From a virus, in IMG/VR virus record IMGVR_UViG_3300029951_000007: a stretch of DNA of 64,000 nt; one strand, 5' to 3'. The notes beneath the pieces are model-generated. The model was given only the letters and a program-made list of their open reading frames with translations, did no database searches and was not told the origin of the DNA. The stretch's first letter is position 1; the number at the start of each line of letters is the position of its first letter. Made by a program: the position numbers and the translations under genes. Below, piece by piece: positions 1,662 to 64,000 of the stretch.

Positions 1662-1675
1662 CGACGCGCCTCGAT

Positions 1676-2335
1676 CTAATACCTTCGCAGGTTCTTCACT
1701 GGTATGGTGCGCTCCGCGCCGCTCTCCGTCGTTTCCTGGATGAAGAACGGGCCTTCTTTCATCGCCTTCTTGCGAAGCTGCGTCATCGTACCGGCCTGGT
1801 CTTTTGCTGGCTTCTTCGGAAGTAGTTCACGACGCTTCTTGGCAGCAGCTCTGCACTTCTCTATGTGCGCTGCCCACGTTGCTTTTGTATATCCTTTTGG
1901 AACGCCGGAGTCCGCAAAATCTTTATGGCTCAGAGCGTCCAGCCCCAGCGACTTGTGCTTCTTCAGCTCCTTGCCGGTGACGCCCAGAATGGACTCCAGC
2001 AGCCCGTAGTATCGCGGCTCCACGAGGCCCTGGCCAGTGCCGTCCTCGATGGGATGCGGGTCCCACAGCAGCTCGCCGTCCAGGGCGACGCAGGCGTGCA
2101 TTCCGCCGCGCGGGCTGACGCCCTCGATCGTGGAGTAGCCGCTGGGTTTCTTGCCGTCGATGAATGCGCGGCGGTAGGACAGACCGTAACCGGCCAGGAA
2201 GTCGTTGGCGCGCTCAGCCTGATCGTCCGTGGACATCTCCGGCACGGCTTCAAGTGGCAGATCCAAAATTGATGCTAAACACGCCGCGAAGCAATTTCCT
2301 GTTTCTCCCACTCGAGTTTGAACGACTCTATGCAT
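1676..2335 (-). CDS. putative papain-fold cysteine peptidase with basic C-terminal tail
   Basis: GNCFAACLASIL is a candidate nucleophile Cys and GGMHACVALDGELLWDPHP a candidate His/Asp. The tail is Lys-rich. Confidence 0.5.
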   Translation of the reverse strand: MHRVVQTRVGETGNCFAACLASILDLPLEAVPEMSTDDQAERANDFLAGYGLSYRRAFIDGKKPSGYSTIEGVSPRGGMHACVALDGELLWDPHPIEDGTGQGLVEPRYYGLLESILGVTGKELKKHKSLGLDALSHKDFADSGVPKGYTKATWAAHIEKCRAAAKKRRELLPKKPAKDQAGTMTQLRKKAMKEGPFFIQETTESGAERTIPVKNLRRY

Positions 2336-2642
2336 TGTCCTTACGCTCCGTGGCTATGGCGGCGCGCCTGTCGACGGCCTCAGCCACCAAAGCGGACGTC
2401 AATGAACTTGAAACTCCGGCGACATGCGCCGCGTCCGAGAACCCGCTCCGCCATTGCTCGAGACGATCCACCTTCAGGTCCAACCCGCTGAGGCGACTGC
2501 CGTGCTCTTTTTGCCCTAGCTCTAGCTGAATTGTTTTCTTATCTCCGTCGTCCACTCGCTGTGTGAGTCGCCCATAGATTACAGCAGCTACTATGATGCT
2601 AGTCAGTATGCCGCCAATTCCCACCGCTATTTCTGGTGTCAC
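2328..2642 (-). CDS. N-terminal TM helix + coiled-coil protein
   Basis: IAVGIGGILTSIIVAAVIY reads as a TM segment, followed by heptad-like charged sequence. The ORF overlaps the downstream ORF by 8 nt. Confidence 0.5.
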   Translation of the reverse strand: MTPEIAVGIGGILTSIIVAAVIYGRLTQRVDDGDKKTIQLELGQKEHGSRLSGLDLKVDRLEQWRSGFSDAAHVAGVSSSLTSALVAEAVDRRAAIATERKDNA

Positions 2643-2891
2643 TTATCCCGCCTTTCTAGTTTGGCCCGACTGGCGGGAGTCCCATGGTGTACGGCGTTCT
2701 GCAAATATGCGCTCGGTCAGGCGCACTGTGGCGTCTATGAAGAATACGTACGTAAGCAGCGCAGCGGCGTCCTGTCCGCGCGAGAAGCGCATGGCCTGCT
2801 CAACGTCCAGGGTGTAGGCCATCTCGCCGTTGCGCACGGTGAAGTATTGCGGCGTCGCAACATCGGCGCGCTCGATAAGCCATGCGGTCAT
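2643..2891 (-). CDS. hypothetical protein
   Basis: Track ORF, tightly packed in the minus-strand operon. Confidence 0.45.
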   Translation of the reverse strand: MTAWLIERADVATPQYFTVRNGEMAYTLDVEQAMRFSRGQDAAALLTYVFFIDATVRLTERIFAERRTPWDSRQSGQTRKAG

Positions 2892-2907
2892 TACAGTCTC
2901 GGTTCTT

Positions 2908-3156
2908 TCACTGAGTAGCTGTGATCGGTTTCATGTACCACGCCGTAAGCACGTCTCCGTCACCGACAGTCTTGTGCAGAAGCGTGATGGCGTTGTCCAG
3001 GAGCGTGTAGTCCACGTTCTGCGTCAAGAACAGGCCATTGAGATACAGGGCCATGCTGCCGGTTGATGGGGTGTCCACTAGTAGGAAGCGATTGCCAGTG
3101 GCAAGCAGTTGGGTCTGTACGAATACTGGGTTCACACTACCGCCTTGGTTACGCAA
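2908..3156 (-). CDS. hypothetical protein
   Basis: Track ORF with beta-rich composition. Confidence 0.45.
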   Translation of the reverse strand: MRNQGGSVNPVFVQTQLLATGNRFLLVDTPSTGSMALYLNGLFLTQNVDYTLLDNAITLLHKTVGDGDVLTAWYMKPITATQ

Positions 3157-3449
3157 ACAAAGTCATCGTCCATGTCAACCGTGCGCTCCGCCAGCTTGTG
3201 CGAGCTGTCACCGAAGAAGTAGATCATTCCATCCTTCATGCGACAGTGGCACTGCGTGATGCCGGTGTCGTAGTCGAATATGAGGATGGAGGGGTCCACC
3301 GTCGGCGCGTACGTGGATTGGTTCCACTCCCAAGCGTCGTCGCCCTTGATCGGAACTTCGTGGGTGGAGTCGCACCCTGGACAGTGCCACATAAGATGTC
3401 CGTCGTGCGTTACTCCGGCCCTGGCCACTAAAGTACTCCTGCATCGCAC
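3132..3449 (-). CDS. DUF6527-like Zn-binding protein
   Basis: HLMWHCPGCDSTHEV ... QCHCRMKDGMIYFFGDSSH matches my memory of the DUF6527 pattern (CPGC...H...HC...G.I.F..D..H). The start is uncertain: the listed start overlaps the portal stop, and there is an internal M at MWHCPGC. Confidence 0.45.
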   Translation of the reverse strand: MRCRSTLVARAGVTHDGHLMWHCPGCDSTHEVPIKGDDAWEWNQSTYAPTVDPSILIFDYDTGITQCHCRMKDGMIYFFGDSSHKLAERTVDMDDDFVCVTKAVV

Positions 3450-5884: not shown

Positions 5885-5983
5885 CTATCGGATTCCTTTC
5901 CAAGACAACGCCCTTGCGCCGCTTCGGTTGTGGTGCCTAGAACCACCGGGCGCAGGATACAAGTCACTGCGCCCGATCTTTGC

Positions 5984-6412
5984 CTAAAGTACGTCCAGCG
6001 AACTGCGCAGGAATAGACCAGAAAGATTGTTTAGTCTGTAGAACGTCAAATTATTGGATATTTCATTGTTCTTGATGGTGTAGACCTCGTCGGTGTGCTG
6101 TCCCCGCACACGAACCGCCCTGCCGGGTTCCAACACAGGCTCTTCTTCGACGCTCGGCAGCTGACCAACATGGTTTTCAAACACTTCCGCGCACATCGCA
6201 CGCCGCCGAAGCAGCAAATCCGCACCCTCTCGTATGAGCGCGTATGCGCGCTTCCAAGAAGGATTCGGCGTATTGTCCTTCCATGCGGTGGCCCAATCAG
6301 CTAGATGCGCCAGATCGTGGTCGCTGAGATCGTTGTTATTTCCATGCAGCAATTCAGATAGGTTCATACATGCTCCATTGCATCCGGACTCCACCGGTGG
6401 GTTGTACAGCAT
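5984..6412 (-). CDS. hypothetical protein
   Basis: Track ORF. The ATG at 6412 overlaps the upstream stop (TGATG coupling). An alternative start lies at 6367. Confidence 0.45.
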   Translation of the reverse strand: MLYNPPVESGCNGACMNLSELLHGNNNDLSDHDLAHLADWATAWKDNTPNPSWKRAYALIREGADLLLRRRAMCAEVFENHVGQLPSVEEEPVLEPGRAVRVRGQHTDEVYTIKNNEISNNLTFYRLNNLSGLFLRSSLDVL

Positions 6413-6591
6413 CAAAACGTCGCGAAGTCCTTGACGGCGGAGGCCTCCATCACGACGTCGCCCTTGTCCATGACGACCTGGCCCACGGCCGCGTTGTCCT
6501 TGTAAAAGACGATTTCGCAGCCGACCTGCTTGTAGCAGTCGGCCTCCACGGTTAGCTCCTTGCCGCCCGCGTATATCCTGAACTTCTTCAT
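6412..6591 (-). CDS. hypothetical 59-aa protein
   Basis: Own translation: MKKFRIYAGGKELTVEADCYKQVGCEIVFYKDNAAVGQVVMDKGDVVMEASAVKDFATF. It falls below the track length cutoff and fills an otherwise empty gap. Confidence 0.4.
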   Translation of the reverse strand: MKKFRIYAGGKELTVEADCYKQVGCEIVFYKDNAAVGQVVMDKGDVVMEASAVKDFATF

Positions 6592-6592
6592 G

Positions 6593-6913
6593 TCAAATCT
6601 CCACTTCCGACTCCGGCAGGATGTCCGTCTCCTCCATCCAGATTACGTTCGTCTCGCTGTAAGGCACCGCCATGACGTCGCCCTCGTCGCTCTTCACGAA
6701 CGCCCACAGCAGGCGCTTGTTGGAGCTGAGAATGGCCTCCAGCACCTCGTCGTCTATCAGCATGCCGCGCCAATGGATGACGTCTCCGGCTTGTATCTCC
6801 ACCTGTCTGCGTTCGTCAGGCAACGTCTTACTACGGCGACGAATGCGCAGCGCCATAACACCCCTCTTGCGGGTCTTGCAGACCCGAGTCACGTACGGCA
6901 GGCGGTAGTTCAT
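6593..6913 (-). CDS. hypothetical protein (106 aa)
   Basis: Internal ATG (MNYRLPY...) of track ORF 6593..7204. It forms an ATGA overlap with the stop of the MuF-like gene. Confidence 0.5.
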   Translation of the reverse strand: MNYRLPYVTRVCKTRKRGVMALRIRRRSKTLPDERRQVEIQAGDVIHWRGMLIDDEVLEAILSSNKRLLWAFVKSDEGDVMAVPYSETNVIWMEETDILPESEVEI

Positions 6914-7800
6914 GCCGCCTCCGCGATGTCGCCGCTGGCCACTTGCTTGAACTGCGTGAGCGTCATTGTCTTGATGGAGCCGTTGCGGTAGACCCGGTGC
7001 GGCCAGCTGACGTCCGAGAACGCGAGCAACGGTATGATGAGGCACCTGCAGTTGAATATGTTGCCCGGCGCGTACTTTCCAAGCGGCTTCTCGTCGACTA
7101 GCGCCTCTGGATCCGGTAGGTCGCCCCACGAGCAAAGCACGCCGTTCAGGTTCTCGTGGCTGGCGCGGGTGCGCTGGTCGTGCGACGTCGCCCACTCGAA
7201 CCACTCGAGGTTCAGCGCCTCGGACCGCGCCCGGGTGAGCGCCGAACTGGCCTTCTGCGCCTCGGTCCTGGATATGAGCCGCGTCCTGGAGCGCAGCAGC
7301 TCGGGGAACCGCTTCTGGTACATCTTGGCAATCGTTGCCGGCCGAGCTCCGGCCTGCTGCGCCTTAGTGACTTCGTTGGTCAGTGTAGTGGCAGCTTCGA
7401 GTGGTAGGGAACTAATCAGCGAAGCATTCTCCCTGATCAGTTGCTGGACGCGTGCGCCCGTCGGGCCCCGCATCTCGGCCTCGAGCAGTTGATAAAGTTT
7501 GCCGGCTTGGCTCGACCTGCTGGCCGCCTCGCGCCAGGAGCGCCAGTTGGATTTCTGCGCGCCGTGGACCATGCGCGTGGCCAGCAGCTCACTAGCGGCC
7601 AGTATGTCTGGCATGCGGGAACGCAGAGCGAGCTCGTTCAGCCATTGACTGAACGTCTGCTCCGGCTTCTGCTTTACCAGTACGCGGCCGATGATCGCCT
7701 TGATGCCTTTCGCGTAACCGTGTTCTAGGCGCTGCGTGGCATGGAACTCTACCGGCGCCTTCTTGGCGGGATTCTTGCTCGTCTTTTTCATCGGGGGCAT
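6910..7800 (-). CDS. head morphogenesis protein, SPP1 gp7 / Mu F-like
   Basis: SHDQRTRASHENLNG and NIFNCRCL motifs are typical of the MuF/gp7 family. Confidence 0.8.
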   Translation of the reverse strand: MPPMKKTSKNPAKKAPVEFHATQRLEHGYAKGIKAIIGRVLVKQKPEQTFSQWLNELALRSRMPDILAASELLATRMVHGAQKSNWRSWREAASRSSQAGKLYQLLEAEMRGPTGARVQQLIRENASLISSLPLEAATTLTNEVTKAQQAGARPATIAKMYQKRFPELLRSRTRLISRTEAQKASSALTRARSEALNLEWFEWATSHDQRTRASHENLNGVLCSWGDLPDPEALVDEKPLGKYAPGNIFNCRCLIIPLLAFSDVSWPHRVYRNGSIKTMTLTQFKQVASGDIAEAA

Positions 7801-7806
7801 GGCGGT

Positions 7807-7974
7807 TCAGTCCGAGACGGCGATGATGGATCCGTCCGGCATGACCAGCACCTCGCGGTTGCGAGCGCCGCCGAGCACGGAGTTCAGCTCATGGGCCGTA
7901 TAGCGCCGCGACTTGCCGCCAACCAGTTTCTTGGCGGCGTACTTGTAGAGAAACAACCAGAATTTCTGCATCAT
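7807..7974 (-). CDS. hypothetical 55-aa protein
   Basis: Internal ATG (MMQKFW...) of the track ORF. It forms an ATGA overlap with the upstream stop. Confidence 0.35.
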   Translation of the reverse strand: MMQKFWLFLYKYAAKKLVGGKSRRYTAHELNSVLGGARNREVLVMPDGSIIAVSD

Positions 7975-8231
7975 ACAAGGTTCCTGGCGCTCCACTTCGG
8001 CGTCATCTGTTCTTTCCAGTTCTCTTTCGCCGACGTACAAGTGACTCCAAATCCAGTGGTATCGTCGTCGCCCTCGAACGTGAACACACCCGGCCACTCC
8101 TTGTAGACCACGCACGGATGGTCCGGGTCACCACTGTCGAGCGGGTCTACTTGGTCGGCAGGAGCGACAGGCGGCGCGGGTTTAGTGTGATGGAACCAGC
8201 TTGCGAACAGCAATACAGCGATTGGAAGCAT
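7971..8231 (-). CDS. small membrane protein
   Basis: MLPIAVLLFASWF reads as a TM segment, with GAGG upstream of the ATG at 8231. The track lists a longer version starting at 8330. Confidence 0.4.
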   Translation of the reverse strand: MLPIAVLLFASWFHHTKPAPPVAPADQVDPLDSGDPDHPCVVYKEWPGVFTFEGDDDTTGFGVTCTSAKENWKEQMTPKWSARNLV

Positions 8232-28877: not shown

Positions 28878-29021
28878 ATGAGAAACGAGCTGTATGAGCC
28901 GTACAAGATCGGCGCGGATTGGTACTTCGACTGCAGGGCCGGAAGGCGCGGACCGTTCGTGTCGGAGCAGCGTTGCGTAGAAGCGGCAGCGAGCAGGCAG
29001 GAAGCGGAGGAGATGGCGTGA
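28878..29021 (+). CDS. hypothetical 47-aa protein
   Basis: MRNELYEPYKIGADWYFDCRAGRRGPFVSEQ... with an AAGGAG RBS. Confidence 0.4.
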   Translation: MRNELYEPYKIGADWYFDCRAGRRGPFVSEQRCVEAAASRQEAEEMA

Positions 29022-29479
29022 CTATCCCAGAGTATTGCGCCGAGGAGGTGTGGCGACAGGGGCACAACCTCGGCGAACTGGACGGCGTGGAGCGCGTCGG
29101 CTGGATGCTGGACGCCTGGAGCTACATGATATACACCGGGCGGCACGCTAGGACGCTGCTGACGGAGGACGTCGTCGCGCTGGGCACACGCGTCGAGCGC
29201 TACAAGAACCGTCGCGGGCTGAGGACGTGCGAGGTGCGGGTGGGAAACTCCATTCCGCCGCGCGCCGTGGACGTTCCGAACCTGCTCGCGGACCTGCTGG
29301 CGCGGCAAGCGGAGCTCGCCCCGCTCGACTTCTACCGCCAGTTCGAGCTCATCCACCCGTTCGAGGACGGCAACGGGCGCGTGGGCAAGGTGCTGCTGAA
29401 CTGGAAGAACGGCACTTTGCTTAACGATCCCATATTCCCTCCGGGCGACTTCTGGGGGACGACGATCTTGAATCCGTAG
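29018..29479 (+). CDS. Fic/DOC-family protein
   Basis: HPFEDGNGRVGK matches the Fic core HxFx(D/E)GNGRxxR, with the last R replaced by K. GTG start in a GTGA overlap. Confidence 0.7.
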   Translation: MTIPEYCAEEVWRQGHNLGELDGVERVGWMLDAWSYMIYTGRHARTLLTEDVVALGTRVERYKNRRGLRTCEVRVGNSIPPRAVDVPNLLADLLARQAELAPLDFYRQFELIHPFEDGNGRVGKVLLNWKNGTLLNDPIFPPGDFWGTTILNP

Positions 29480-33225: not shown

Positions 33226-35514
33226 ATGACTGTAAAGACTAAGAAAGTGACGCAGACCGACCTGGACTTCACCGTGTTCAGTCGCGCGGTGGCCGCCCAG
33301 TTCCAGCGCATGAGCGCGCATCCGCTGTTCCGCGCATCAACCAGCAAGGACGATATGTGGGCCATATACCAGGCCGCTTGGCCGGAGGGCACCAACGAGA
33401 TCTTCCGCGAGCGGCGGGAGCATGATTGCCAGAAGTGCAAGCACTTCATCCGAGCGGTCGGCGGCGTCGTGGCCGTGATCGACGGCGAGCTTGTCAGTAT
33501 TTGGGACGCGGAGATGCCCGAGCCGTACGCCACGGTGGCTGCGGCCATGTCGCGCTACGTGGAATCTTGCGCCATCGACAACGTGTTCCTCACGTCGGAG
33601 CGCACGGCGGGGGTGGCGAAGAATTTTCAGCAGGTCATAACTGCCCTAGAGTTCCAAGACTCATTCGCGAAGGCTTCGGCTACACCGCTAAAGAGCGAAC
33701 GCGTGATCGAGTGGAACCACTTCAGCGTCGCCATCCCGGACCGCTTCGTCGTCTCGAAGAAGGACATCGGGCCGAAACTGGCCGACGCCCGCGCCACGCA
33801 CGACGTTCTGCTGCGCGGACTGCAGGAGCTCACGCTGGACTCGGTCGACACGGTGCTCGAGTTGATTGCGCAGAACTCGCTCTACCGTGGGGAGGAGTAT
33901 AAGCATTCGTTGCAGACGTTCCGGGCGTTGAAGGTGAAGTTCGACGCCGTGAGTCCTGCCATGCAGCTTTCTCTGAATAACCGAGCGGCAGCGGATGAAG
34001 TGCTGAACGAACGACGCGACCAGTTCGCGTGGCTCCACGCCCAGGCCGCGCACCCGACAGCGAGTCGGATTCGCAACACGGCCATTGGCACGCTGCTGAT
34101 CGACCTGTCGGCCGGGATCGAGCTCGAGGACGCCGTCAAGAAGTTCGAGACGTCCGTCATGGCCCCATCCAATTACAAGCGGCCCACGGCGCTGGTTTCC
34201 AAGGCCATGATCGAGAAGGCGCGCGTGAAAATCGACGAGCTGGGGCTGGCGTCGGCTTTGGAGCGTCGCTACGCCGTCATAGACGACATCACGGTGAACA
34301 ATATCCTGTTCGCCGACCGATCGGCCAAGGTGCTGAGGGGCCAGCGCGGCGGTGGTAAGACGGCCGAGAGCGCGTTCGCGGAACTGGCGGAGAAGATCCC
34401 CGAGGACGTCAAGAAGCTGGACCGCGTGGAGGAGATCGGCATCGAGAAGTTCCTCAAGGACGTGCTTCCGAAGGCGACCTCGCTGGAGGTTCTGTTTGAG
34501 AACAAGCACGCCGGGAACCTCGTCAGCCTTATCGCGCCAGTCGACCCCACGGCTAAGAACCTGTTCAAGTGGCCCAACAAGTTCTCCTGGTCGTACGCGG
34601 GGGACGTGGCGGACTCCATCAAGGAGCGCGTCAAGCGCGCCGGAGGAAGCGTAGTCGGCGACCTTTGCTGCCGGCTGGCCTGGGACTACACGGACGACCT
34701 GGATTTCCACATGATTGAGCCAGCTGGCGCGGGGCGTGGAAGAGGCGGTTTCGGCACCGGTAGCACGCATATCTTCTACGGCAACGTACGCAGGCCGTCT
34801 GCCAGCGGAGGCATTCTGGACCTGGACGCCAACGGTTGCGACGGCCTGAAGGCTGAACCAGCGGAGAACATCTTCTACGCCGACAAGGCCAACATGGCGG
34901 AGGGCGTGTACGAGCTGACGGTAAACAACTACTCGCGACGCTCGACCGGAAGTGGATTCGAGGCGCAGGTGGAGTTTGGCGGCGTCACGCACAACTTCGT
35001 CTACGAGAAGGCGCTGCGCACCGGAGAGACGGTAAGCGTAGCCAAGGTGAAGTACAGCCATGCGGCTGGGTTCGAGATTATCGAGTCGTTGCCGTCGACG
35101 CAAACCTCCAAGGAGGTTTGGGGTATGCAGACGCAGACCTTTCGCAAGGCGAACGTGGTCATGCTGTCGCCGAATTGGTGGGATGGCTACGCGCCTGGCA
35201 CCGCGACGTTCGAATCACTCGGAGACGTGGAAGCTGACGAGCGGGTGGCGAAGGCGTTCGGTATCGGCAACAAGCACTACTTCTTCATGCTGGAGGGCTG
35301 CGCCAACGAGGGCAAGGCTCGCGGCTACTACAATGAATTCTTGCGCGCGGACCTGGAACCGCACCGCAAGGTCATGGAGATGGTGGGGGCCAAGATGCGC
35401 ACGGACGAGGCCGCGCACCAGTTGTCTGGCTTAGGCTTCTCGTCTACACAGAGGGCTGAGCTAACCGTGCGGGTCGGCGGAACGTTCAGCCGTGTCGTAA
35501 AGGTGGTGTTCTAG
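33226..35514 (+). CDS. large (762 aa) conserved-looking protein of unknown function
   Basis: It is the longest ORF in the right arm other than the primase-helicase gene and has a good RBS. The central block reads DDLDFHMIEP...IFYGNVRRPSASGGILDLDANG...AENIFY. Confidence 0.7.
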   Translation: MTVKTKKVTQTDLDFTVFSRAVAAQFQRMSAHPLFRASTSKDDMWAIYQAAWPEGTNEIFRERREHDCQKCKHFIRAVGGVVAVIDGELVSIWDAEMPEPYATVAAAMSRYVESCAIDNVFLTSERTAGVAKNFQQVITALEFQDSFAKASATPLKSERVIEWNHFSVAIPDRFVVSKKDIGPKLADARATHDVLLRGLQELTLDSVDTVLELIAQNSLYRGEEYKHSLQTFRALKVKFDAVSPAMQLSLNNRAAADEVLNERRDQFAWLHAQAAHPTASRIRNTAIGTLLIDLSAGIELEDAVKKFETSVMAPSNYKRPTALVSKAMIEKARVKIDELGLASALERRYAVIDDITVNNILFADRSAKVLRGQRGGGKTAESAFAELAEKIPEDVKKLDRVEEIGIEKFLKDVLPKATSLEVLFENKHAGNLVSLIAPVDPTAKNLFKWPNKFSWSYAGDVADSIKERVKRAGGSVVGDLCCRLAWDYTDDLDFHMIEPAGAGRGRGGFGTGSTHIFYGNVRRPSASGGILDLDANGCDGLKAEPAENIFYADKANMAEGVYELTVNNYSRRSTGSGFEAQVEFGGVTHNFVYEKALRTGETVSVAKVKYSHAAGFEIIESLPSTQTSKEVWGMQTQTFRKANVVMLSPNWWDGYAPGTATFESLGDVEADERVAKAFGIGNKHYFFMLEGCANEGKARGYYNEFLRADLEPHRKVMEMVGAKMRTDEAAHQLSGLGFSSTQRAELTVRVGGTFSRVVKVVF

Positions 35515-37200: not shown

Positions 37201-37553
37201 GCTTGAAAAGCGTGCGGTACTGCGACGAATGCGGAGCGGCCAAGACCATCGCCAACCATTGGTGGGCCGTCTCCAACACGGCGGAAGCGCCTCTGTTCAT
37301 GACCTCCAAGAGCGCCGACAAGCTGCTGCACAAGGACGCGTTCCGGCTGGATTACTGCAGCTACACCTGCGTCGGCACGGTGTTCAACCGCTGGCTGGAC
37401 ACTGGCTCCGTCGTCAAGAAGAAGCCGCGCCCGATCAAGGCGGTGGCCGTTGCCAAGGCGATAGAACCCGAACTCGACGAGACAGAGGAAGAGTACGCTC
37501 GGTTGCTTACACCGTCAGAGGTAGAAAAGGAAGCGTATGCAGCTGTTTATTGA
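37197..37553 (+). CDS. hypothetical zinc-ribbon protein
   Basis: ATGA overlap; YCDECG...CSYTC. Confidence 0.5.
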   Translation: MSLKSVRYCDECGAAKTIANHWWAVSNTAEAPLFMTSKSADKLLHKDAFRLDYCSYTCVGTVFNRWLDTGSVVKKKPRPIKAVAVAKAIEPELDETEEEYARLLTPSEVEKEAYAAVY

Positions 37554-38007
37554 TTGTGACGGTGTGTTAGCGGACTTCGATCAATACTTCATCGACCACT
37601 ACGGACGACATCCGACACTGGTGGAGGAAGAGCACGGCAGTAAACGACTGTGGCAAGATCTGCAGGACCATGAAGATTACTACTTCAAGCTGCCGCTCAT
37701 GCCGGACGCCATGGAGCTGTACGATAGCGTCAAGCATCTGAATCCGATCATTCTGACTGGAAGACCAGCAAGCGGACTATGGGCCGTGGATCAAAAGATT
37801 CGTTGGACGGCCAAGCATTTTCCAGGCGTACCGACCATCGTCTGTCTATCGCGTGACAAGTGCCATCACATGACCGCGCCTGGAGACATACTCGTGGATG
37901 ATCGGGTGAAGTACGCACCATTTTGGACTGACGCTGGCGGAGTGTTCGTTCATCACAAGTCGGCGGAAGCGACGATTGTTACACTAGAGAGGCTGGGTTT
38001 GCTGTGA
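37537..38007 (+). CDS. 5'(3')-deoxyribonucleotidase (HAD family)
   Basis: The N-terminal FIDCDGVLADF matches HAD motif I (DxDGV) as in the NT5C family. ILTGR and VDD motifs are also present. Confidence 0.7.
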   Translation: MQLFIDCDGVLADFDQYFIDHYGRHPTLVEEEHGSKRLWQDLQDHEDYYFKLPLMPDAMELYDSVKHLNPIILTGRPASGLWAVDQKIRWTAKHFPGVPTIVCLSRDKCHHMTAPGDILVDDRVKYAPFWTDAGGVFVHHKSAEATIVTLERLGLL

Positions 38008-40205: not shown

Positions 40206-40652
40206 ATGCAGACCTTCCTTCCCTACAAGTCGTTCGTCAAATCGGCCGCGTGCCTGGATAATAAGCGGTTGGGCAAGCAGCGCGTGGAAGCCTACCAGCT
40301 GCTGAACGCGCTGCTAGGCTTGACGCACAAGCCAGGATCCGCCGTGCGCAAAGGATGGACCAACCATCCGGCAGCGTTGATGTGGAAAGGCCATGAAGGC
40401 GTTTTGTACCAATACGCTTGCATTGTATGCGACGAGTGGAAGCGACGCGGATTCAAGAACGAGGCCATGGAGGCTAATCTTCTGCGGCTGTTCAACGTAG
40501 TCGCTGTGCGCTTGATAAAGACATCGACGAGTCCAACGTGGCTAGGTAGTAGGAAGTTCCATGCGTCGCATCGCAGCAATCTACTGCGGAAGGATGCAGC
40601 GTGGTATGGGAAGTTCAACTGGAAGGAGCCGGCAGACCTGGAGTACGTCTGA
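40206..40652 (+). CDS. conserved hypothetical, possibly pyrimidine-dimer DNA glycosylase (DenV/Pyr_excise)-like
   Basis: MQTFLPYKSFVKSAACLDNKRLGKQRVEAYQLL...WTNHPAALMW resembles the N-terminal LD..L..Q.RE pattern of that superfamily. This is from memory only. Confidence 0.4.
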   Translation: MQTFLPYKSFVKSAACLDNKRLGKQRVEAYQLLNALLGLTHKPGSAVRKGWTNHPAALMWKGHEGVLYQYACIVCDEWKRRGFKNEAMEANLLRLFNVVAVRLIKTSTSPTWLGSRKFHASHRSNLLRKDAAWYGKFNWKEPADLEYV

Positions 40653-46974: not shown

Positions 46975-47402
46975 TTCTATCGCGGCAAGATCTTATGAAG
47001 TACGTAGAGCGGGGTGCGCTACGGTTCGAGCCAGCATTGGCTGACGATCAGTTTCAGCAAAACGGCATTGACATGATTGTGAGTCAGGTGGAGAGCGACT
47101 TGTTGGCCGCAGGTGGATTCACGTTAGGTCGTACGCGCGAGATTATAACCATGCCTGACGACCTTATGGCGTTCGTGCAAATACGGTCCACTTGGGCGCG
47201 TATGGGCTTCATCATGCCACCGACTGTGATAGACGCTGGCTTCCAGGGCAGTATCACCCTGGAGATAGCCAAGTTCGGCGCGCCGGGTTACGTGCCTGTT
47301 GGACAGCGATTCGCCCACGTCATCTTCGCGAAGCTTACCAGCGCCACCGAGCCTTATCGCGGCAAGTACCAGGGCCAAGTGGCCATTACGGGGGCGCTGT
47401 AG
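46971..47402 (+). CDS. dCTP deaminase / dUTPase-fold enzyme
   Basis: The TTG start gives MILSRQDLMKYVERGALRFEP, the classic Dcd N-terminus. IDAGFQGSITLEI, GQRFAHVIF and YRGKYQGQ are also present. Confidence 0.65.
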   Translation: MILSRQDLMKYVERGALRFEPALADDQFQQNGIDMIVSQVESDLLAAGGFTLGRTREIITMPDDLMAFVQIRSTWARMGFIMPPTVIDAGFQGSITLEIAKFGAPGYVPVGQRFAHVIFAKLTSATEPYRGKYQGQVAITGAL

Positions 47403-57625: not shown

Positions 57626-57781
57626 ATGCCACAGTCCATGCAACAGAAGCGCAAGAACTCCCTCGAACTTCTCAAGTCAGCACTCATCAGCCGCATCGCG
57701 CAGGAAGAGTTCAAGAAGGCTGAGAACCTCGCCCGCATGATCCAGTTCACCGAAGCCGCCATCGCGAAGGGTGGACGCTAA
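57626..57781 (+). CDS. hypothetical 51-aa helical protein
   Basis: Own translation MPQSMQQKRKNSLELLKSALISRIAQEEFKKAEN... with a TAAGGAGAA RBS. Confidence 0.4.
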   Translation: MPQSMQQKRKNSLELLKSALISRIAQEEFKKAENLARMIQFTEAAIAKGGR

Positions 57782-57782
57782 C

Positions 57783-59342
57783 ATGGCAAAGTCAATCCTG
57801 AAGAACATCAAGGCAGCACCGAGCGCGAAAGCTGTCAAGGCTGTTGGCAAGAAGTTGATCAAGACGGCTAAGGGCGAAACAGTCGTAGCCACGCACGACA
57901 TCCACAATAAGTCGCTCGCTCCCACCGCGCCCGTAACGCCGCTGACTCAGGCGTTCGTCAAGGCCGGATTCGTATACAGCCGCACTGAGGAGGTAGATAA
58001 CAATACCGCTCATGGCTATACACGCGAAGACGGTGCGGCGCTTCTATTCACGCACGCTGGCAGTTCGTCCAGCATCAACACCGCGTGGCAGGTGAAGTTT
58101 GCGGACGGCTCCACGGCTGAAGGCAAGAACGCTCAGCAATTCGTAAAGACCATGTACGACGCTAAGGGACCGGCTCCGTTACCTAGCAACGTCGTGGCCG
58201 CGCTGGACGCGCTACGTAAGCTGACGGCTGGCAAGTATCGCATCAGCGATCTGGCTGGCGACGCCAACTACAAGGCGCGCGTGCAGCTTCTGAAGCTGCT
58301 ACGTAAGACTGACAAGGTACTGGTCAAGGAGAGCGGCGTCAACAAAGTGCTGACCGAGTTCTACGTCGCGCTCGGCATCGCGAAGTCGTCCGTGGCCGGT
58401 ATGGAGTCGGCATTCAGCGCGAAGTGCATGGAGCTCGCGAAGAGTGCCAGCAAGACGGAGCGCGCGGTAGCGAAGGTAGAGAAGGCTGTAATCGCTGACG
58501 AGCTTCGGAAGACGGTACACACCCGCGTCGTATTCGATGGCAAGCCGATCCTGGACGCGCCCAAGAAGATGAACAAGAAGCAAGAAGCCAAGGACAGCGC
58601 CGATTTCAAGCTGGAACTGGCGGCACGAGTCAAGCGTGCGGAGCGCGAAACGGCGAACATGCCAATGGCGCAGCCGAAGTCGGATGCTGATATCTACGTC
58701 AACCTGGACGAGATATTCCTGCTGGAAGATCCCAATAATGGTATCGTTTTGCTACAGTTGGAAAAACCCAATTCGCAGGGCGCGATTTGCGTGTATAATA
58801 ACGGGAGTCGCGTTGCTGCCGGAGTAGTACCGACAGAAGTTCTGAGAACACTGCGTCAGATCACAAGTAGCGATCTAGTGAGAGACGTAAATCAGTTACT
58901 ACACCCCATTACGGCTGGAGTTGTAGTTTCGTCCGTGGCTGAACGCCACCTTACAGCGGTGTTAGATCACTGCAAGGAGAACATCATGACCACTGCAACC
59001 GTTGAAACCAAGAAGCAGAAATTCGCACCTCCCGCTGGAACAGCCAAGAAGACCGCGAAGAACGCTGTCACGACCAAGGTCAAGGCAACCGTAACCAAGA
59101 AGGCCGACAAGGCACCGCGCGCCGCAGCCGCCGATCGCAAGATCAAGGCGTTAGTAACGTTGAAGTCGGAGTCGTTGCCCCGCGAAGGCAGCTTCTGCTA
59201 CGGTCAAGTTGAGGCCATCATCGGCTCCAAGACCGTGAGCGAGGCTCAGGCCAAGCTGGACAAGTCCAAGCTGAATCCCAGCGGTCGCAAGCTGGAAGTG
59301 GCGTGGCTGGTGAAGCAGGGCTACCTGTCCGTCATCGAGTAG
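57783..59342 (+). CDS. hypothetical 519-aa protein with Lys-rich (histone-H1-like) segment
   Basis: ATG at 57783. KKTAKNAVTTKVKATVTKKADKAPRAAAADRK is a basic low-complexity region. Confidence 0.6.
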   Translation: MAKSILKNIKAAPSAKAVKAVGKKLIKTAKGETVVATHDIHNKSLAPTAPVTPLTQAFVKAGFVYSRTEEVDNNTAHGYTREDGAALLFTHAGSSSSINTAWQVKFADGSTAEGKNAQQFVKTMYDAKGPAPLPSNVVAALDALRKLTAGKYRISDLAGDANYKARVQLLKLLRKTDKVLVKESGVNKVLTEFYVALGIAKSSVAGMESAFSAKCMELAKSASKTERAVAKVEKAVIADELRKTVHTRVVFDGKPILDAPKKMNKKQEAKDSADFKLELAARVKRAERETANMPMAQPKSDADIYVNLDEIFLLEDPNNGIVLLQLEKPNSQGAICVYNNGSRVAAGVVPTEVLRTLRQITSSDLVRDVNQLLHPITAGVVVSSVAERHLTAVLDHCKENIMTTATVETKKQKFAPPAGTAKKTAKNAVTTKVKATVTKKADKAPRAAAADRKIKALVTLKSESLPREGSFCYGQVEAIIGSKTVSEAQAKLDKSKLNPSGRKLEVAWLVKQGYLSVIE

Positions 59343-59689: not shown

Positions 59690-60613
59690 TTGCCACGTAA
59701 GAGGAGAACGATCCTGAAAAACCTAACACTCATCATCCCCACGCACGGTCGTGTTAACAAGCAGATAACGCTCCAGGCGCTGCCGACTGCGCTCCAGGCC
59801 GAGGTCATCCTCGTGGCTTCGTTGCCTGACGAAGCCAAGGCGCTGAAGAAGCTGTACCCGGCTAACCAAGTGCTTACAGCCAAGGGCACTACATCCATCG
59901 CTACGAAGCGTCACTGGATTATGAAGAACGTAGCCGGCAAGTTTCTATTTATGATGGACGACGACCTGGCGTTCTTCGAGCGCTGCCCGGCTAAGTGGCG
60001 CGTGTGGGAGGAGCATCGCAAGGCGTACGCCGTAGCTCCGGACGCACCGGCTGGAACCTCGCTGATGATGCGTCGCTATCCTAAGGACAAGGTCCTCTTG
60101 AAGCTATTCCAGGAGATGGATTCCTACGCTGGTAAAGAGCACGACCTCGGTATGATCGGCATCGCGCATCGGCGTCACTCTGACAAGAAGAAAGCGGCGT
60201 GGGAGAAGAACGCAAGGATGATGTATGCTTTCGGTGTCAACCGAGAGCTCTATCTCAAAGAGAAGATTCGCTTCGACGCCATAGGTCTGCGCGAGGACTT
60301 CCACGTGGTGTTGTCCATGTTGCGTAAAGGCCATGAGTGCCACAACTACGTCGAGCTACTCAACAACGAGTACGGCACATTCGGCGCGGCGGGAGGGTGC
60401 AGCGGCGAGCGCAGTATGGAGTACAGCGACGCCCAGTGCTTCGAGTTGGCCAAGCTACACCCCGGCTTCGTGAAGGTGGTGGACCGCGCGTACACCACGA
60501 CGGCTGTGCGTAAGGAGGTCGTGGTAGCCTGGAAGAAGGCTTACCTCTCCTCTCTGGCTCAGCCCAAGGTTCCAAGCGTACGGAAGGCAGCAAAGAAAGC
60601 GGTGACGGCATGA
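59690..60613 (+). CDS. GT-A fold (GT2-like) glycosyl/phospho-group transferase
   Basis: LTLIIPTHGR is a typical GT-A N-terminal strand and FLFMMDDDLAFF a DxD motif. The start codon is uncertain: the track uses the TTG at 59690, and a GAGGAGA RBS precedes a CTG at ~59715. Confidence 0.6.
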   Translation: MPRKRRTILKNLTLIIPTHGRVNKQITLQALPTALQAEVILVASLPDEAKALKKLYPANQVLTAKGTTSIATKRHWIMKNVAGKFLFMMDDDLAFFERCPAKWRVWEEHRKAYAVAPDAPAGTSLMMRRYPKDKVLLKLFQEMDSYAGKEHDLGMIGIAHRRHSDKKKAAWEKNARMMYAFGVNRELYLKEKIRFDAIGLREDFHVVLSMLRKGHECHNYVELLNNEYGTFGAAGGCSGERSMEYSDAQCFELAKLHPGFVKVVDRAYTTTAVRKEVVVAWKKAYLSSLAQPKVPSVRKAAKKAVTA

Positions 60614-60777
60614 AGTGCGAAAATTGCAAGAAGAAGTGTGCGAATCGGTTCTGTAACCTTGGCTGCTTCAACCGGTGGGTGCGGCGTGGTAATCGCAAAC
60701 TGGTGGAGGACGCGCACAAGAGCGGCACGGAGGATTACCGCGTCGTCGTACGGAAGATGATGGGAGGCACGGCGTGA
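60610..60777 (+). CDS. 55-aa zinc-ribbon protein
   Basis: Own translation MKCENCKKKCANRFCNLGCFNRWVRRG.... An ATGA overlap lies upstream and a GTGA overlap downstream. Confidence 0.4.
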   Translation: MKCENCKKKCANRFCNLGCFNRWVRRGNRKLVEDAHKSGTEDYRVVVRKMMGGTA

Positions 60778-61511
60778 TCATTCACCACAAGATTCAGCGC
60801 AACAGCGGAGCAGCCCTAGAGCCGTGTATCTATAAGAGTGGCCATGGTGTGCCGACGCAAGGCGCTAAGATGCGCGCCTATCCGGACGTATTTGTGCCGG
60901 TGCTAGGTATAACGACTGGCGGCTACGTCATGCCGGTAATGGGCGAACCATCGCCGGTACTGGACCTGCCGTTGGCGCTGGCCCGGTTGGCTGCTTTATG
61001 GGACCTGCCGGTGGCGCATGTCTACGATTATGAGGGCCGCCGTCGCCACCACGTAGTCCAAGTAGAGCCGTTCACTCGCACAGAAGGCTTTCCGCCTATT
61101 ATCCGGTCGGCGCTGACGACGTGGTACGAACGAATTGGTAGTACGCAAAGCAAAGGAGCACAGGTCGTACATGGTGATCCCACCCTGGAGAACTACGTAC
61201 GCGACGGTTATTGGCTAGACCCTAGTACGCGTCCATTGCCACAAGAGGCCGAGCTTGACGGCGGCAAGCTGCTGCAGTCGTACTTCCACTACGGTCGCCC
61301 TTGCCTGGAGTCGGAACGTTACATGATACGTAAGTTCTTGGTCGAGCAAAAATTGAACCTGGACCTCTGTATCTACTACATGCTGACGCACATCATTCGG
61401 CTGTATGGTGTGCAGCCGCAGGCGCGTGTATGGGCCATTGACGTCGTATCGGGCCTGCGTAATTTGGCGGAAGAACTTCGCACGGAAATGAGAGTGGATG
61501 CATGCAAGTAG
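60774..61511 (+). CDS. protein-kinase-like fold small-molecule kinase (APH / choline-kinase-like)
   Basis: VVHGDPTLENYV is the catalytic-loop HGDxxxxN and YWLDPS the metal-binding D. Confidence 0.6.
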   Translation: MIIHHKIQRNSGAALEPCIYKSGHGVPTQGAKMRAYPDVFVPVLGITTGGYVMPVMGEPSPVLDLPLALARLAALWDLPVAHVYDYEGRRRHHVVQVEPFTRTEGFPPIIRSALTTWYERIGSTQSKGAQVVHGDPTLENYVRDGYWLDPSTRPLPQEAELDGGKLLQSYFHYGRPCLESERYMIRKFLVEQKLNLDLCIYYMLTHIIRLYGVQPQARVWAIDVVSGLRNLAEELRTEMRVDACK

Positions 61512-62221
61512 TTATTCTGGCGGCAGGACGCGGTGAACGATTTGTCAGTAACGGGGTAATGACGCCTAAACCGCTGCTCCCAGCGCGCGGTCGCACGATG
61601 ATACAGCATGCGCTGGTCCAGGCGTCTGAAATCATCAAGACGCCTGTCGTTGTGTGCTTGGTGGATTTGTACAGTGAGCTTCACAAGCAAACGCCGAAGA
61701 ACATGCATCCGATCCGCGTGCCCATTCGGTTCGTGCAGAAGGGTGCGGCCATGTCTTTGTTGGCGGCGTCAGGTGTGATTCGCGATACCGATCCGGTGCT
61801 GGTCATGGACTGTGACACCATCTTCAAGAGTGGTGTGCTTGCTAAGTTCTCTGAGTTTAGTGAGGCTTGCTTCAAGTCTGGCGTGCAGTCTTCTATGCTG
61901 TGCTTCCGTCCTAAGGATGACAGCGAGCGCTACAGTTTCGTTATCATGAAGGATCACTTAGTGACGCAGGTGGTGGAGAAGCAGCGCATAAGCGGTATTG
62001 CTTCTTGCGGCGTTCATGCATTCCAGTCGTGGGAGCTTGCCAAGCGCGCCATCTACGAGATGGTGATTCTCAGTACGATGACTAACGGTGAGTACTATCT
62101 GGCACCGTGCCACAACAATTTGCAGTTGACCACGGCCATGGTGATCGCAGCCGATGAATTCAACCACGTAGGCACACCGGCTGAACTGGAGGCGTATGAG
62201 CAAGCAGTTCCCAAGGCTTGA
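61502..62221 (+). CDS. sugar-/alcohol-phosphate nucleotidyltransferase
   Basis: MQVVILAAGRGERF (LAAGxGxR), PKPLLP and an LVMDCD acidic motif. Size and pattern resemble the RmlA/GlmU-N/LicC class. Confidence 0.75.
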   Translation: MQVVILAAGRGERFVSNGVMTPKPLLPARGRTMIQHALVQASEIIKTPVVVCLVDLYSELHKQTPKNMHPIRVPIRFVQKGAAMSLLAASGVIRDTDPVLVMDCDTIFKSGVLAKFSEFSEACFKSGVQSSMLCFRPKDDSERYSFVIMKDHLVTQVVEKQRISGIASCGVHAFQSWELAKRAIYEMVILSTMTNGEYYLAPCHNNLQLTTAMVIAADEFNHVGTPAELEAYEQAVPKA

Positions 62222-63068
62222 AGAGTTCGTGTACTTCGTGAACGAGCGTTGGTCCATACATCAGAAGCGATTGGCTGGGAAGCCTGCTCCGTGGACGAAG
62301 GATCCTATCCTGTTGGAATACCGCTTTACCAACGTACGTCGCGAAGACGACAGGGTCACTAAGTGTATACACGAAAACTGGTTACAGCCGCACGCGGAGG
62401 ACTACGACACGGTAGTCTTCGCAATGGCGCTGGCACGGTTGGTGAACTTGCCGGCGAGCCTGGAAGCGCTCGGTTATCCATCAAAATGGAATCCGAAGCG
62501 GTTTGTGAAGCTGATGGAGGCGCGCAAGAAGGACGGCATGGCGACGTTCACAGGGGCATACATGATAAACGCCGTCGGTGCTACCAAAGGACAGTCCAAG
62601 GCGTCGTACTTGGCCGACCAGGTGCTTGGGCCGTTGTGGAACAGCCGTAAGCTGCTAGGTAACTTGGTGCGTACCGGGTGTGAGCTTAGTACGTTGCAAG
62701 AAGCGCTCATGTTACATCACGGCTTCGGAGGTGGGTTCATGAGTGCGCAGGTCGTGGCGGATATTAAGCACCTGCCTTCTATGAAGAAGGCTGAAGACTG
62801 GATGACGTTCGCAATGTCAGGGCCAGGAAGTCGTAGAGGGTTAAACTGGCTCGTGGGAAGAGAACCAACTGCGCGCTGGAACGAAGAGGAATGGCATGCT
62901 ACGCTGCTGGATTTGATGAAGGTAGCTCAGCCAAAGTTGAAATGCCCAGTGTTGGATGCGCAGAATCTACAGAACTGTCTGTGTGAATTCAGCAAATACT
63001 GCAAGGTGAAGTACAACGGCGGCAGAGCGAAGCAGAAGTTCCGCGCCAGCGGCGAAGCTTATAATTAA
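62196..63068 (+). CDS. aGPT-Pplase-like / 5-hmdU-DNA-kinase-associated helical domain protein (DNA base hypermodification family)
   Basis: NERWSIHQKRLAGKPAPWTKDPILLEYRFTNVRREDDRVT matches my memory of the PWT.DPIL..YRF.NV.RE.D..T signature of that family. The protein looks all-alpha and is 290 aa. Confidence 0.55.
   Translation: MSKQFPRLEEFVYFVNERWSIHQKRLAGKPAPWTKDPILLEYRFTNVRREDDRVTKCIHENWLQPHAEDYDTVVFAMALARLVNLPASLEALGYPSKWNPKRFVKLMEARKKDGMATFTGAYMINAVGATKGQSKASYLADQVLGPLWNSRKLLGNLVRTGCELSTLQEALMLHHGFGGGFMSAQVVADIKHLPSMKKAEDWMTFAMSGPGSRRGLNWLVGREPTARWNEEEWHATLLDLMKVAQPKLKCPVLDAQNLQNCLCEFSKYCKVKYNGGRAKQKFRASGEAYN
63060..63065 (+). promoter_or_regulatory. TATAAT box, recurrent motif
   Basis: AAGCTTATAATTAACCC overlaps the stop of 62196..63068, 28 nt before the ATG at 63094. 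Confidence 0.4.
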
Positions 63069-63093: not shown

Positions 63094-64000
63094 ATGTACA
63101 GTTACAAAGCTAGAGACGTAAATGAGGCGCTTTCACTTGGACTACAGCATTTGTTACACAGTGGAATCAAAGAGGACTCCAGAGTAGGTCCAGTGCTAGT
63201 AGCGCCAGGGCCGGTGTGTATCGAGTATACCGACCCAAGGCAGCGAGTGCTGTATTCACCAACGCGCGATGCGAACCACGTATTCCATGTGATGGAGGCG
63301 TTGTGGTTTTTCTCGGGGAGCAACGAACTGGAGTTTCCGGTTTTCTTTAATGCCTCATACTCGCAGTTTTCAGATGATGGCAAGACTATGTGGGACTCTT
63401 ACGGATGGCGCTGGCGAGAATTCTTCGGCTATGACCAGCTCGATGCCATAGTGGAGGAGCTCAAGTCGAATCCGGGAAGCAGGCGCTGCGTATTGGCGAT
63501 GTGGAACGCTGATATTGCGCCAAGCGCCCCGCAATGGGAGGCGAAAAGTGGCGTACAGTACAGCGATGATCTTGGCGTTGCGTGCAACGGTGGTAAAGCC
63601 GTTCCGTGCAACACGCACGCTTACTTCGCCATACGAGCCGGCAAGCTGAACATGACCGTCATGAACCGCAGCAACGACAGTATGTGGGGCGCATTCGGCG
63701 CGAACGCGGTCCACTTCAGCTTCCTGTTGGAGTACATGGCGATGCGTATCGGTGTGCCGATGGGCAGTTACTATCAGTTCACGAACAATCTGCATACGTA
63801 TACCGACAAGTTCAGTATTGACAAGCTGAACGCCATTGAATACGAGTGCGTTACGCTCGATCAGTTGGAACCTCTTGGACCCTCTATCACAGAAGGATTC
63901 GACGACGACCTGAAGCTGTTCATGCCGTGGGCGCTGAAGGTGATACGTGCCACCCCACCGCCGGCAACGTTCCCGTCAGACGTATTACCAGAAGCTACGC
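63094..64000 (+). CDS. divergent thymidylate-synthase (ThyA)-fold enzyme, candidate dUMP hydroxymethylase (3' end beyond window)
   Basis: Own translation from the ATG at 63094 stays open to the window end. GSRRCVLAMWN, VPCNTHAYFAIRAGKLNMTVMNRSND, GANAVHFSFLLEYMA and NNLHTY align with ThyA SRRIIVSAWN, PCHAFFQFYV..GKLSCQLYQRSCD, PFNIASYALL and GDTHLY. Confidence 0.75.
   Translation, partial: MYSYKARDVNEALSLGLQHLLHSGIKEDSRVGPVLVAPGPVCIEYTDPRQRVLYSPTRDANHVFHVMEALWFFSGSNELEFPVFFNASYSQFSDDGKTMWDSYGWRWREFFGYDQLDAIVEELKSNPGSRRCVLAMWNADIAPSAPQWEAKSGVQYSDDLGVACNGGKAVPCNTHAYFAIRAGKLNMTVMNRSNDSMWGAFGANAVHFSFLLEYMAMRIGVPMGSYYQFTNNLHTYTDKFSIDKLNAIEYECVTLDQLEPLGPSITEGFDDDLKLFMPWALKVIRATPPPATFPSDVLPEAT

Follow-up and report, generated by a model that had tools for sequence, protein, structure and literature searches.

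Overlapping kinase and nucleotidyltransferase genes of an uncultured phage as a probable source of activated sugar for DNA glycosylation

The virus record IMGVR_UViG_3300029951_000007 of IMG/VR belongs to an uncultured phage with a genome of about 100 kb. A stretch of 64,000 nucleotides (nt) of it (hereafter, the window) carries two overlapping genes, one for a small kinase of the aminoglycoside phosphotransferase (APH) fold and one for a nucleotidyltransferase (NT). On the basis of sequence and structure comparisons, we estimate a probability of about two in three that this pair is a split version of the phage enzyme AfhE, which would make a nucleoside diphosphate (NDP)-sugar for the neighbouring glycosyltransferase TAGT, the latter glycosylating 5-hydroxymethyl-deoxyuridine (5-hmdU) in the phage DNA. 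The synthesis of an activated donor by the kinase and the NT is proposed because the gene order is conserved, the two activities occur fused to each other together with a HAD phosphatase, and the kinase is homologous to gp52 of phage RB69. The window is part of contig k141_2593046 (ENA ERZ27248783; 100,316 bp). The analysis covered 71.5 kb, that is the window and 7.5 kb downstream of it (L001 being the locus of the source contig that holds the TAGT and ThyA genes described below); relatives of the phage contig, of almost the same length, are present in other metagenomes. The two genes are the following.

60774-61511, plus strand: minimal 245-amino-acid (aa) kinase of the APH/choline-kinase fold, predicted from its fold, its motifs and a profile match to RB69 gp52 to be an anomeric sugar kinase or sugar-phosphate kinase.

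61502-62221, plus strand: sugar-1-phosphate nucleotidyltransferase of the GlmU/RmlA/MurU superfamily, a predicted NDP-sugar maker (Pfam; profile comparison with PDB).

The open reading frame (ORF) of the kinase begins with GTG and includes the segment VVHGDPTLENYV, followed by WLDPS. That of the NT begins with ATG, encodes 239 aa and starts with MQVVILAAGRGERF...TPKPLL. The stop codon of the kinase (TAG, 61509-61511) lies beyond the NT start codon at 61502, and the coordinates give an overlap of exactly 10 nt, the value reported in an earlier note on this DNA, which had singled out the pair by the motifs HGDPTLENYV and LAAGRGERF...PKPLL. Both frames are judged to be real genes and not chance ORFs, because the kinase has homologues, conserved catalytic residues and a good AlphaFold2 model, and the NT scores above the Pfam gathering thresholds.

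The kinase loci that could be recovered represent about 11 distinct lineages (22-58% identity), in which a core made of TAGT, the kinase, an optional HAD phosphatase and the NT is kept. Throughout the clade closest to the window the order is TAGT-kinase-NT-HMUDK_hel-ThyA-HD. In most of the lineages retaining the flank, TAGT is directly 5' of the kinase; loci L014, L028 and L012 have an ORF between the two or another order. The place of HMUDK_hel varies in L014-L017, L023, L024 and L028, where it frequently lies immediately 5' of TAGT, and the TAGT-kinase-NT core persists. A small HAD phosphatase (motif DxDGT) adjoins the kinase and the NT in eight lineages, usually between both; the window clade, L014 and L016 are devoid of it. 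Two loci have a different setting. L012 contains genes for Tet_JBP, ParB, amidoligase, GATase, HAD, NT, kinase and TAGT, with no HMUDK_hel or ThyA detected, and L013 contains a ParB-like gene, TAGT, kinase, HAD and NT, again with neither HMUDK_hel nor ThyA. The L012 genes form an operon-like run (793-8157 of IMG/VR 3300008111_002146; Amidoligase_2/GATase/ParB_N/Tet_JBP together with HAD/NT/kinase/TAGT) that joins the 'amino-acid' and the 'sugar' toolkits of thymidine and cytosine hypermodification.

In three AT-rich metagenome contigs, the NT, the HAD phosphatase and the kinase are parts of one protein of about 664 aa (L025 4340-6334, L026 2912-4909 and L027 2880-4871), with the motif DIDGT in the HAD domain and HGDLTFEN...IDPDGS...ELDFGKLLQSY in the kinase domain. 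This fusion is strong evidence that NT, phosphatase and kinase act in consecutive steps on one small molecule. The fused gene adjoins genes for a transaldolase/FSA, an FkbM-methyltransferase-WavE protein and a Nucleotid_trans glycosyltransferase, an apparently complete sugar-nucleotide factory with no recognisable DNA-modification context. It might be argued from these relatives, located among WavE/FkbM/Nucleotid_trans glycan genes with DNA-modification genes undetected, that DNA is not the destination of the NDP-sugar in the window phage either, and that it serves to modify virion proteins, host surface glycans or the like. This is very improbable, since in the window and 10 other lineages the pair is found between TAGT and the genes for 5-hmdU or Tet_JBP, often in overlapping frames.

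A further possibility is that the two enzymes work on different substrates: the NT would take a sugar-1-phosphate from the host and the kinase would phosphorylate the DNA-bound sugar after its transfer. An 'APH phosphotransferase' has indeed been described among the 'additional sugar modifying enzymes' recurring near phage DNA glycosyltransferases (Pyle et al., bioRxiv 10.1101/2023.12.21.572611), and the window clade is without the HAD phosphatase that a route through a sugar bisphosphate would need. We nevertheless consider this arrangement unlikely, as consecutive steps are indicated both by the NT-HAD-kinase fusion and by the kinase and NT genes being strictly adjacent, the stop codon of one overlapping the start of the other, and as the kinase of AfhE, the available precedent, serves donor synthesis.

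The connection to that precedent is given by profile comparisons. The hidden Markov model (HMM) of the kinase family matches RB69p052 with 45.8 bits (HMM positions 35-182), and the NT model matches RB69p053. Alignment of the kinase family with the RB69 gp52 kinase by hhalign has a probability of 93.6 per cent over 60 columns of the catalytic core. RB69 gp52:53, DLP3 gp82 and HY126 AfhE are bifunctional arabinose-5-phosphate kinases/UDP-arabinose pyrophosphorylases, with a MurU-like NT domain at the N-terminus and an APH-like kinase domain at the C-terminus (PMC13326640). In this route the kinase converts arabinose-5-phosphate to the 1,5-bisphosphate, the 5-phosphate is removed by the HAD phosphatase AfhF/gp51, and the NT domain produces UDP-arabinose for DNA arabinosyltransferases; the genes concerned in RB69 are gp51-55 (PMC13326640).

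The window kinase itself is not recognized by the curated family models. It has no Pfam match at E ≤ 0.1 and none in PHROG or NCBIfam, and does not reach the gathering threshold of Pfam APH (PF01636), a family touched weakly by nine of 56 diverse relatives (best 8.3e-5). The PDB sequence search returned only chance-level matches to DING proteins, and there was no sequence-level match to kinases of cellular salvage or surface routes such as LicA. No match was obtained by tblastn against 50,697 phage records, and two motif-pattern scans of 185,579 reference genomes found no relatives. There are 16 close homologues, and an exhaustive profile search yielded 279 cluster representatives of the family at E ≤ 1e-3, nearly all of them 190-280 aa long and three of 362-376 aa. 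A further instance of the pair exists in a deposited record, MT837550.1 (Bacteriophage sp., human faecal, 6.6 kb), an unannotated fragment with relatives of the kinase domain and of the NT at 773-1690 and 2733-3455, on the same strand and about 1 kb apart.

Alignment of the 56 diverse members shows K21, H133 and G134 unchanged throughout, with at least 90 per cent conservation of D135, N140 and D149. In the window kinase these correspond to the ATP-binding K21, the catalytic loop H133-G-D135-PTLE-N140 and the Mg-binding D149 in WLDPS. An AlphaFold2 model based on the family alignment has a mean pLDDT of 91.8 and a pTM of 0.88. Its best Foldseek matches in PDB are choline kinases, LicA (4r77), APH(3')-IIb, fructosamine-3-kinase, and amicoumacin and macrolide kinases, with probabilities of about 1.0 and TM scores of 0.5-0.63 (0.63 for fructosamine-3-kinase 3f7w). 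No protein kinase, a type of match that would have spoken against a small-molecule enzyme according to the earlier note, is present among the top 50. Among viral models (BFVD), the search retrieved RB69ORF052c with E 4.9e-4 and, with E 1.7e-7, a protein from an uncultured phage labelled 'aminoglycoside phosphotransferase'. The APH fold proposed from the letters alone is thus borne out, and the kinase is, as far as the model goes, a fold-level member of the APH superfamily without a curated family model.

For the NT, the results of Pfam, NCBIfam and PDB profile comparison agree on the predicted sugar-1-phosphate nucleotidyltransferase, as expected from the initial reading of its motifs. The Pfam matches are NTP_transf_3 (PF12804; 6.8e-14, 52.8 bits for a cutoff of 27) and NTP_transferase (PF00483; 2.7e-10, 40.7 bits for a cutoff of 21.2). 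The best NCBIfam models are Arch_glmU, GlmU, MurU (1.9e-9), AglF and HddC, all under their equivalog cutoffs. A profile of 15 orthologues retrieves 4evw from PDB (5e-26), then GlmU, ST0452, RmlA, GDP-mannose pyrophosphorylase and HddC; LicC is not among the 60 best of the 106 matches. The residues G9, R13, F14, D105, E159-K160 and G170 are invariant, as are the GxGxRF and PK motifs; E159-K160 makes up the EK motif, which binds phosphate. Prediction of the nucleotide from the site equivalent to Q76 of GlmU and Q83 of RmlA was abandoned; the glycine spacing differs and the residue varies among lineages.

The earlier note had left open whether the product would be an NDP-sugar or a CDP-alcohol. 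The second would imply a route like that of LicA/LicC, in which the kinase would act on choline, ethanolamine, glycerol or another amino-alcohol or polyol and the NT would form a CDP-alcohol, so that DNA would receive a phospho-alcohol in place of a sugar. The presence of choline kinases and LicA at the top of the Foldseek matches, a resemblance at the level of the fold, would fit such a route, as would weak matches of IspD-type cytidylyltransferase models to the NT. However, the best PDB matches of the NT profile are all sugar-1-phosphate nucleotidyltransferases, and IspD appears only at 2e-8; the linked transferase is the GT-A enzyme TAGT and not a LicD-type phosphotransferase; HAD phosphatases and transaldolase in the relatives indicate sugar phosphates; and the closest characterized relative of the kinase is a sugar-phosphate kinase. 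A CDP-alcohol is therefore highly unlikely, and it is the NDP-sugar half of the initial proposal that gains from gene order, fusions and homology.

The pair is embedded in a longer run of genes, some of which, together with a more distant gene of nucleotide metabolism, are predicted to provide the acceptor and the transferase.

59690-60613, plus strand: DNA glycosyltransferase of the TAGT family, GT-A type, predicted user of the activated sugar (PF20691, phrog_842).

60610-60777, plus strand: Cys-rich ORF of 55 aa, starting with MKCENCKKKCANRFCNLGC..., which the gene calls of the source contig include.

62196-63068, plus strand: HMUDK_hel protein (similar to PaMx11 gp50, 'clade-1 aGPT-Pplase'), presumably DNA-binding (PF18723, 1.9e-41).

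63094-64000, plus strand: ThyA homologue of 363 aa extending past the end of the window, predicted dUMP hydroxymethylase (Thymidylat_synt; L001 12321-13412).

46995-47402, plus strand: protein of the DCD/dUTPase family, likely supplier of dUMP (PF22769 DCD, weak PF00692; L002 9593-10000, the window coordinate being L002 + 37402).

The stop codon of TAGT and the start of the 55-aa ORF overlap in ATGA (60610-60613), the stop of this ORF and the start of the kinase overlap in GTGA (60774-60777) with GGGAGG upstream, and the NT, ending at 62221, overlaps the HMUDK_hel gene, starting at 62196, by 26 nt. The run TAGT - 55-aa ORF - kinase - NT - HMUDK_hel is, judging from these junctions, translationally coupled. 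The 55-aa ORF is not kept across the window clade (L008 and L006 are without such an ORF). Kinases of the P0015 type carry an N-terminal CxxC...CxxC extension, which hints at a zinc-ribbon add-on.

TAGT matches PF20691 with E 1.1e-14 (55.3 bits for a cutoff of 27.5) and phrog_842, beta-glucosyl-HMC-alpha-glucosyltransferase, with E 2.6e-43; the gene caller places its start at about 59813, and the called gene corresponds to L001 9040-9840. The TAGT family includes the glucosyltransferase of base J, and the adjacent GT-A enzyme noticed in the first reading can be specified, according to Pfam and PHROG, as a TET-associated/JGT-type DNA glycosyltransferase. Upstream of it, positions 57771-59342 encode a protein of 523 aa with a Lys/Ala-rich segment and no Pfam or PHROG match; all close relatives have an ORF of 519-678 aa in the same place, between DUF2786 and TAGT.

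The acceptor base is most likely 5-hmdU incorporated during replication, because the ThyA homologue resembles PaMx11 gp51 (48% identity, E 2.5e-70) and because a DCD/dUTPase and PolA are also encoded. The active-site pattern of the ThyA homologue is that of PaMx11 gp51, including the uracil-type N177 (E. coli numbering), and differs from RB69p048, a 5-hydroxy-dCMP synthase. An HD (YfbR-like) nucleotidase and then DUF3310 follow downstream of the ThyA homologue.

HMUDK_hel (pI 9.5, net charge +13) is the counterpart of PaMx11 gp50 (tblastn, 28.7% identity over 300 aa, E 1e-24). Current Pfam splits the aGPT-Pplase families into ADDT (PF18724) and HMUDK_hel (PF18723). The 62196-63068 product was considered as an amino-acid:DNA transferase (AADT) and rejected: it matches PF18723 only and corresponds to gp50, and tblastn with PaMx11 gp46 (AADT, PF18724) finds nothing in the window or L001, so that it is assigned as an HMUDK_hel paralogue. 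Phage M6 has an equivalent paralogue, gp55, which was not needed when amino acids were transferred in vitro (PMC8989533). Across the loci compared, HMUDK_hel is present in every ThyA-linked locus (e.g. L014 4961-5950, L024 1584-2441, L017 5273-6103), although a P-loop 5-hmdU DNA kinase or an AADT is found in none of them, and several lineages have it immediately next to TAGT. It follows ThyA and TAGT, not the APH-fold kinase, and is not found in the Tet_JBP loci with kinase, NT and TAGT.

The retention of HMUDK_hel bears on another suggestion of the earlier note, that the protein-kinase-like enzyme replaces the P-loop 5-hmdU DNA kinase. The APH-fold kinase would then be a non-orthologous substitute acting on DNA with HMUDK_hel, and the NT would either nucleotidylate or otherwise use 5-phosphomethyl-uracil, giving rise to a new activated-base intermediate, or make an NDP-sugar from host sugar-1-phosphate. 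The P-loop enzyme (PF18748) is indeed missing, as the note had remarked for the window: tblastn with PaMx11 gp49, Pfam and a Walker-A scan agree in finding none in the 71.5 kb, where the only credible Walker A belongs to a 762-aa ORF (33226-35514), and no related locus compared has a P-loop 5-hmdU DNA kinase or an AADT. In addition, HMUDK_hel is not only retained but translationally coupled to the pair, and in PaMx11 the P-loop kinase is located just 5' of HMUDK_hel-ThyS-HD.

Despite these points, the replacement is improbable. Members of the kinase family are joined with NT and HAD in one protein amid genes of sugar metabolism (L025-27), and the family is homologous to the sugar-phosphate kinase of RB69; it accompanies Tet_JBP, NT and TAGT where HMUDK_hel is undetected (L012, L013); the HAD phosphatase associated with kinase and NT in the eight lineages suits a sugar bisphosphate and not DNA; the consumer of the phosphorylated base, AADT (PF18724), was not found in the loci examined; and HMUDK_hel tracks ThyA and TAGT instead of the kinase. 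Charge was tried as a means of separating DNA-acting from small-molecule enzymes. The median pI over the related loci is 9.3 for TAGT, 9.55 for HMUDK_hel, 6.55 for the kinase and 6.2 for the NT; the criterion was dropped after its control failed, the PaMx11 AADT, which is proven to act on DNA, having a pI of 5.7, and the P-loop DNA kinase one of 8.3, close to the 7.8 of the window kinase.

In the favoured scheme, a split AfhE-like module serving TAGT, the APH-fold kinase would take a sugar or sugar-phosphate from the host and phosphorylate it at the anomeric hydroxyl, possibly via a bisphosphate; the NT would join the resulting sugar-1-phosphate to a nucleoside triphosphate (NTP) to give the NDP-sugar; and TAGT, a basic GT-A enzyme, would move the sugar onto the hydroxyl of 5-hydroxymethyl-dU in the phage DNA. 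The 5-hmdU would be made before replication by the dUMP-hydroxymethylase-like ThyA homologue, with PolA of the phage and the nucleotide enzymes DCD, HD and NT5C taking part. This would leave the DNA with a base-J-like glycosyl-oxymethyl-uracil as the final product, shielding the genome from nucleases.

Several observations weigh against this scheme. The homology to RB69 gp52 is remote and restricted to the core (the 60 hhalign columns and about 150 HMM positions), and the E-values of the Foldseek matches to PDB are modest (1e-4 to 1e-3). The window clade is without the HAD phosphatase seen in most other lineages, and has no SIS isomerase or epimerase. None of these three enzymes, and no small P-loop kinase, came up in Pfam and Walker-A surveys of the window, and neither the HMM of the kinase-linked HAD nor tblastn with RB69p051 and RB69p055 gave anything credible in the window or L001. 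It follows that the substrate would be an unphosphorylated sugar, or that the window clade depends on the host, of which GmhB-type phosphatases, for example, may supply the lacking step of the donor route. The NT5C protein (37537-38007) was examined as the missing sugar-bisphosphate phosphatase and discarded, since it resembles neither RB69 gp51 nor the kinase-linked HADs and is more probably a nucleotidase for dNMPs.

Finally, HMUDK_hel is kept without the P-loop 5-hmdU DNA kinase, and the scheme leaves its persistence unexplained. To our knowledge, HMUDK_hel is otherwise found only beside this kinase or fused to it. A plausible role is that of a DNA-level accessory, a putative presenter of 5-hydroxymethyluracil (5-hmU) to any enzyme derivatizing the hydroxyl, whether P-loop kinase or glycosyltransferase. 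For the more specific combination, a base-J-like replacement of thymidine carrying a phage-made sugar other than glucose, with HMUDK_hel as a general 5-hmU-presenting factor, we see roughly even chances.

Some other features of the window may be mentioned. The minus-strand gene at 3428-5884 encodes an 818-aa portal protein (Phage_portal_3, residues 62-420) with a C-terminal InPase domain (PF18823, residues 677-804, E 3.7e-34), that is, a portal-pyrophosphatase fusion. In the early/replication region, precomputed Pfam matches indicate a Fic-domain protein (28919-29479), a T4 endoV-like Pyr_excise glycosylase (40206-40652) and the NT5C deoxyribonucleotidase. The GC and AT skews flip sign at about 16-17 kb, where the portal, Mu F and small terminase genes on the minus strand diverge from the early and replication genes on the plus strand.

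If the favoured scheme is true, the window clade, which consists of soil and metagenome phages, and at least 10 other lineages would swap thymidine for a glycosylated hydroxymethyluracil with a donor made by the phage. The logic of AfhE, recently discovered for arabinosyl-5-hydroxycytosine, would then hold for thymidine hypermodification in phages as well, and a Pfam-less kinase family of 279 cluster representatives would gain a name and a testable function. The occurrence of HMUDK_hel beside a glycosyltransferase without the P-loop DNA kinase offers a handle on the function of HMUDK_hel. In practical terms, new DNA glycans could block restriction and CRISPR nucleases, and the enzymes might be used for DNA labelling.

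The principle of a private donor, made by an APH-like kinase and an NT for a DNA glycosyltransferase, is established. The statement of the earlier note that a self-contained donor route would be unusual is outdated because UDP-arabinose (PMC13326640) and heptosyl-5-hydroxymethylcytosine (heptosyl-5hmC; bioRxiv 10.1101/2023.12.21.572611) are precedents for phage-private donor synthesis of this kind, the AfhE type having been described in papers of 2025-26. What appears to be new in the window is that the two genes are separate and overlap, that the kinase family has no curated model and no close relatives in cultured phages or reference genomes, that a dedicated phosphatase or isomerase is apparently lacking, that the predicted branch is that of thymidine (5-hmdU) and uses a GT-A enzyme of the JGT type, and that HMUDK_hel occurs without its usual kinase.

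The closest known system is that of AfhE/AfhF, found in RB69 (gp52:53, gp51 and gp55), DLP3 (gp81-83) and HY126, which like the window combines an APH-fold kinase and a MurU/RmlA-like NT for a DNA glycosyltransferase. The resemblance includes the HAD phosphatase carried by relatives of the window kinase, in some cases fused to the NT. However, AfhE is a single NT-kinase polypeptide, whereas the window has two overlapping genes in the order kinase, NT; the AfhE system possesses the HAD phosphatase AfhF and an arabinose-5-phosphate isomerase, neither of which was found in the window; and its acceptor derives from flavin-dependent formation of 5-hydroxy-dCMP, whereas the window is predicted to rely on dUMP hydroxymethylation to 5-hmdU and on a GT-A transferase of the TAGT family.

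The heptosyl-5hmC system of contig 53, for which experiments showed a cytidylyltransferase, a GT-B and a bifunctional HAD-APH enzyme to be indispensable (Pyle et al., bioRxiv 10.1101/2023.12.21.572611), likewise associates a phage APH-like kinase with an NT and a DNA glycosyltransferase, and in contig 53 a sugar other than glucose is placed on a hydroxymethylpyrimidine. This likeness is drawn from its description; contig 53 differs in its CTP_transf-type NT, its GT-B and the post-replicative formation of 5hmC by methyltransferase and TET. Among cellular systems, AmgK-MurU, NahK and LicA-LicC of bacteria also pair an APH-fold small-molecule kinase with an NT. These systems belong to cellular salvage or surface routes and have larger kinases of about 280-360 aa; AmgK is an anomeric MurNAc/GlcNAc kinase and MurU a MurNAc-1-phosphate uridylyltransferase.

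With respect to the acceptor, the reference is the thymidine hypermodification cluster of M6 and PaMx11 (PMC8989533): the series HMUDK_hel - ThyA - HD - DUF3310 of the window is syntenic with PaMx11 gp50-gp53, and AADT, FAD enzyme, acetyltransferase and P-loop kinase of PaMx11 are replaced in the window by TAGT, the 55-aa ORF, the kinase and the NT. Base J of kinetoplastids, formed by JBP and JGT, resembles the predicted product, since in both cases a TAGT/JGT-type GT-A enzyme acting on 5-hydroxymethyluracil would give a glycosyl-oxymethyl-uracil. Base J is made by post-replicative hydroxylation of thymine and with UDP-glucose of the host, whereas in the window phage 5-hmdU would be formed at the nucleotide level and the donor is apparently made by the phage.

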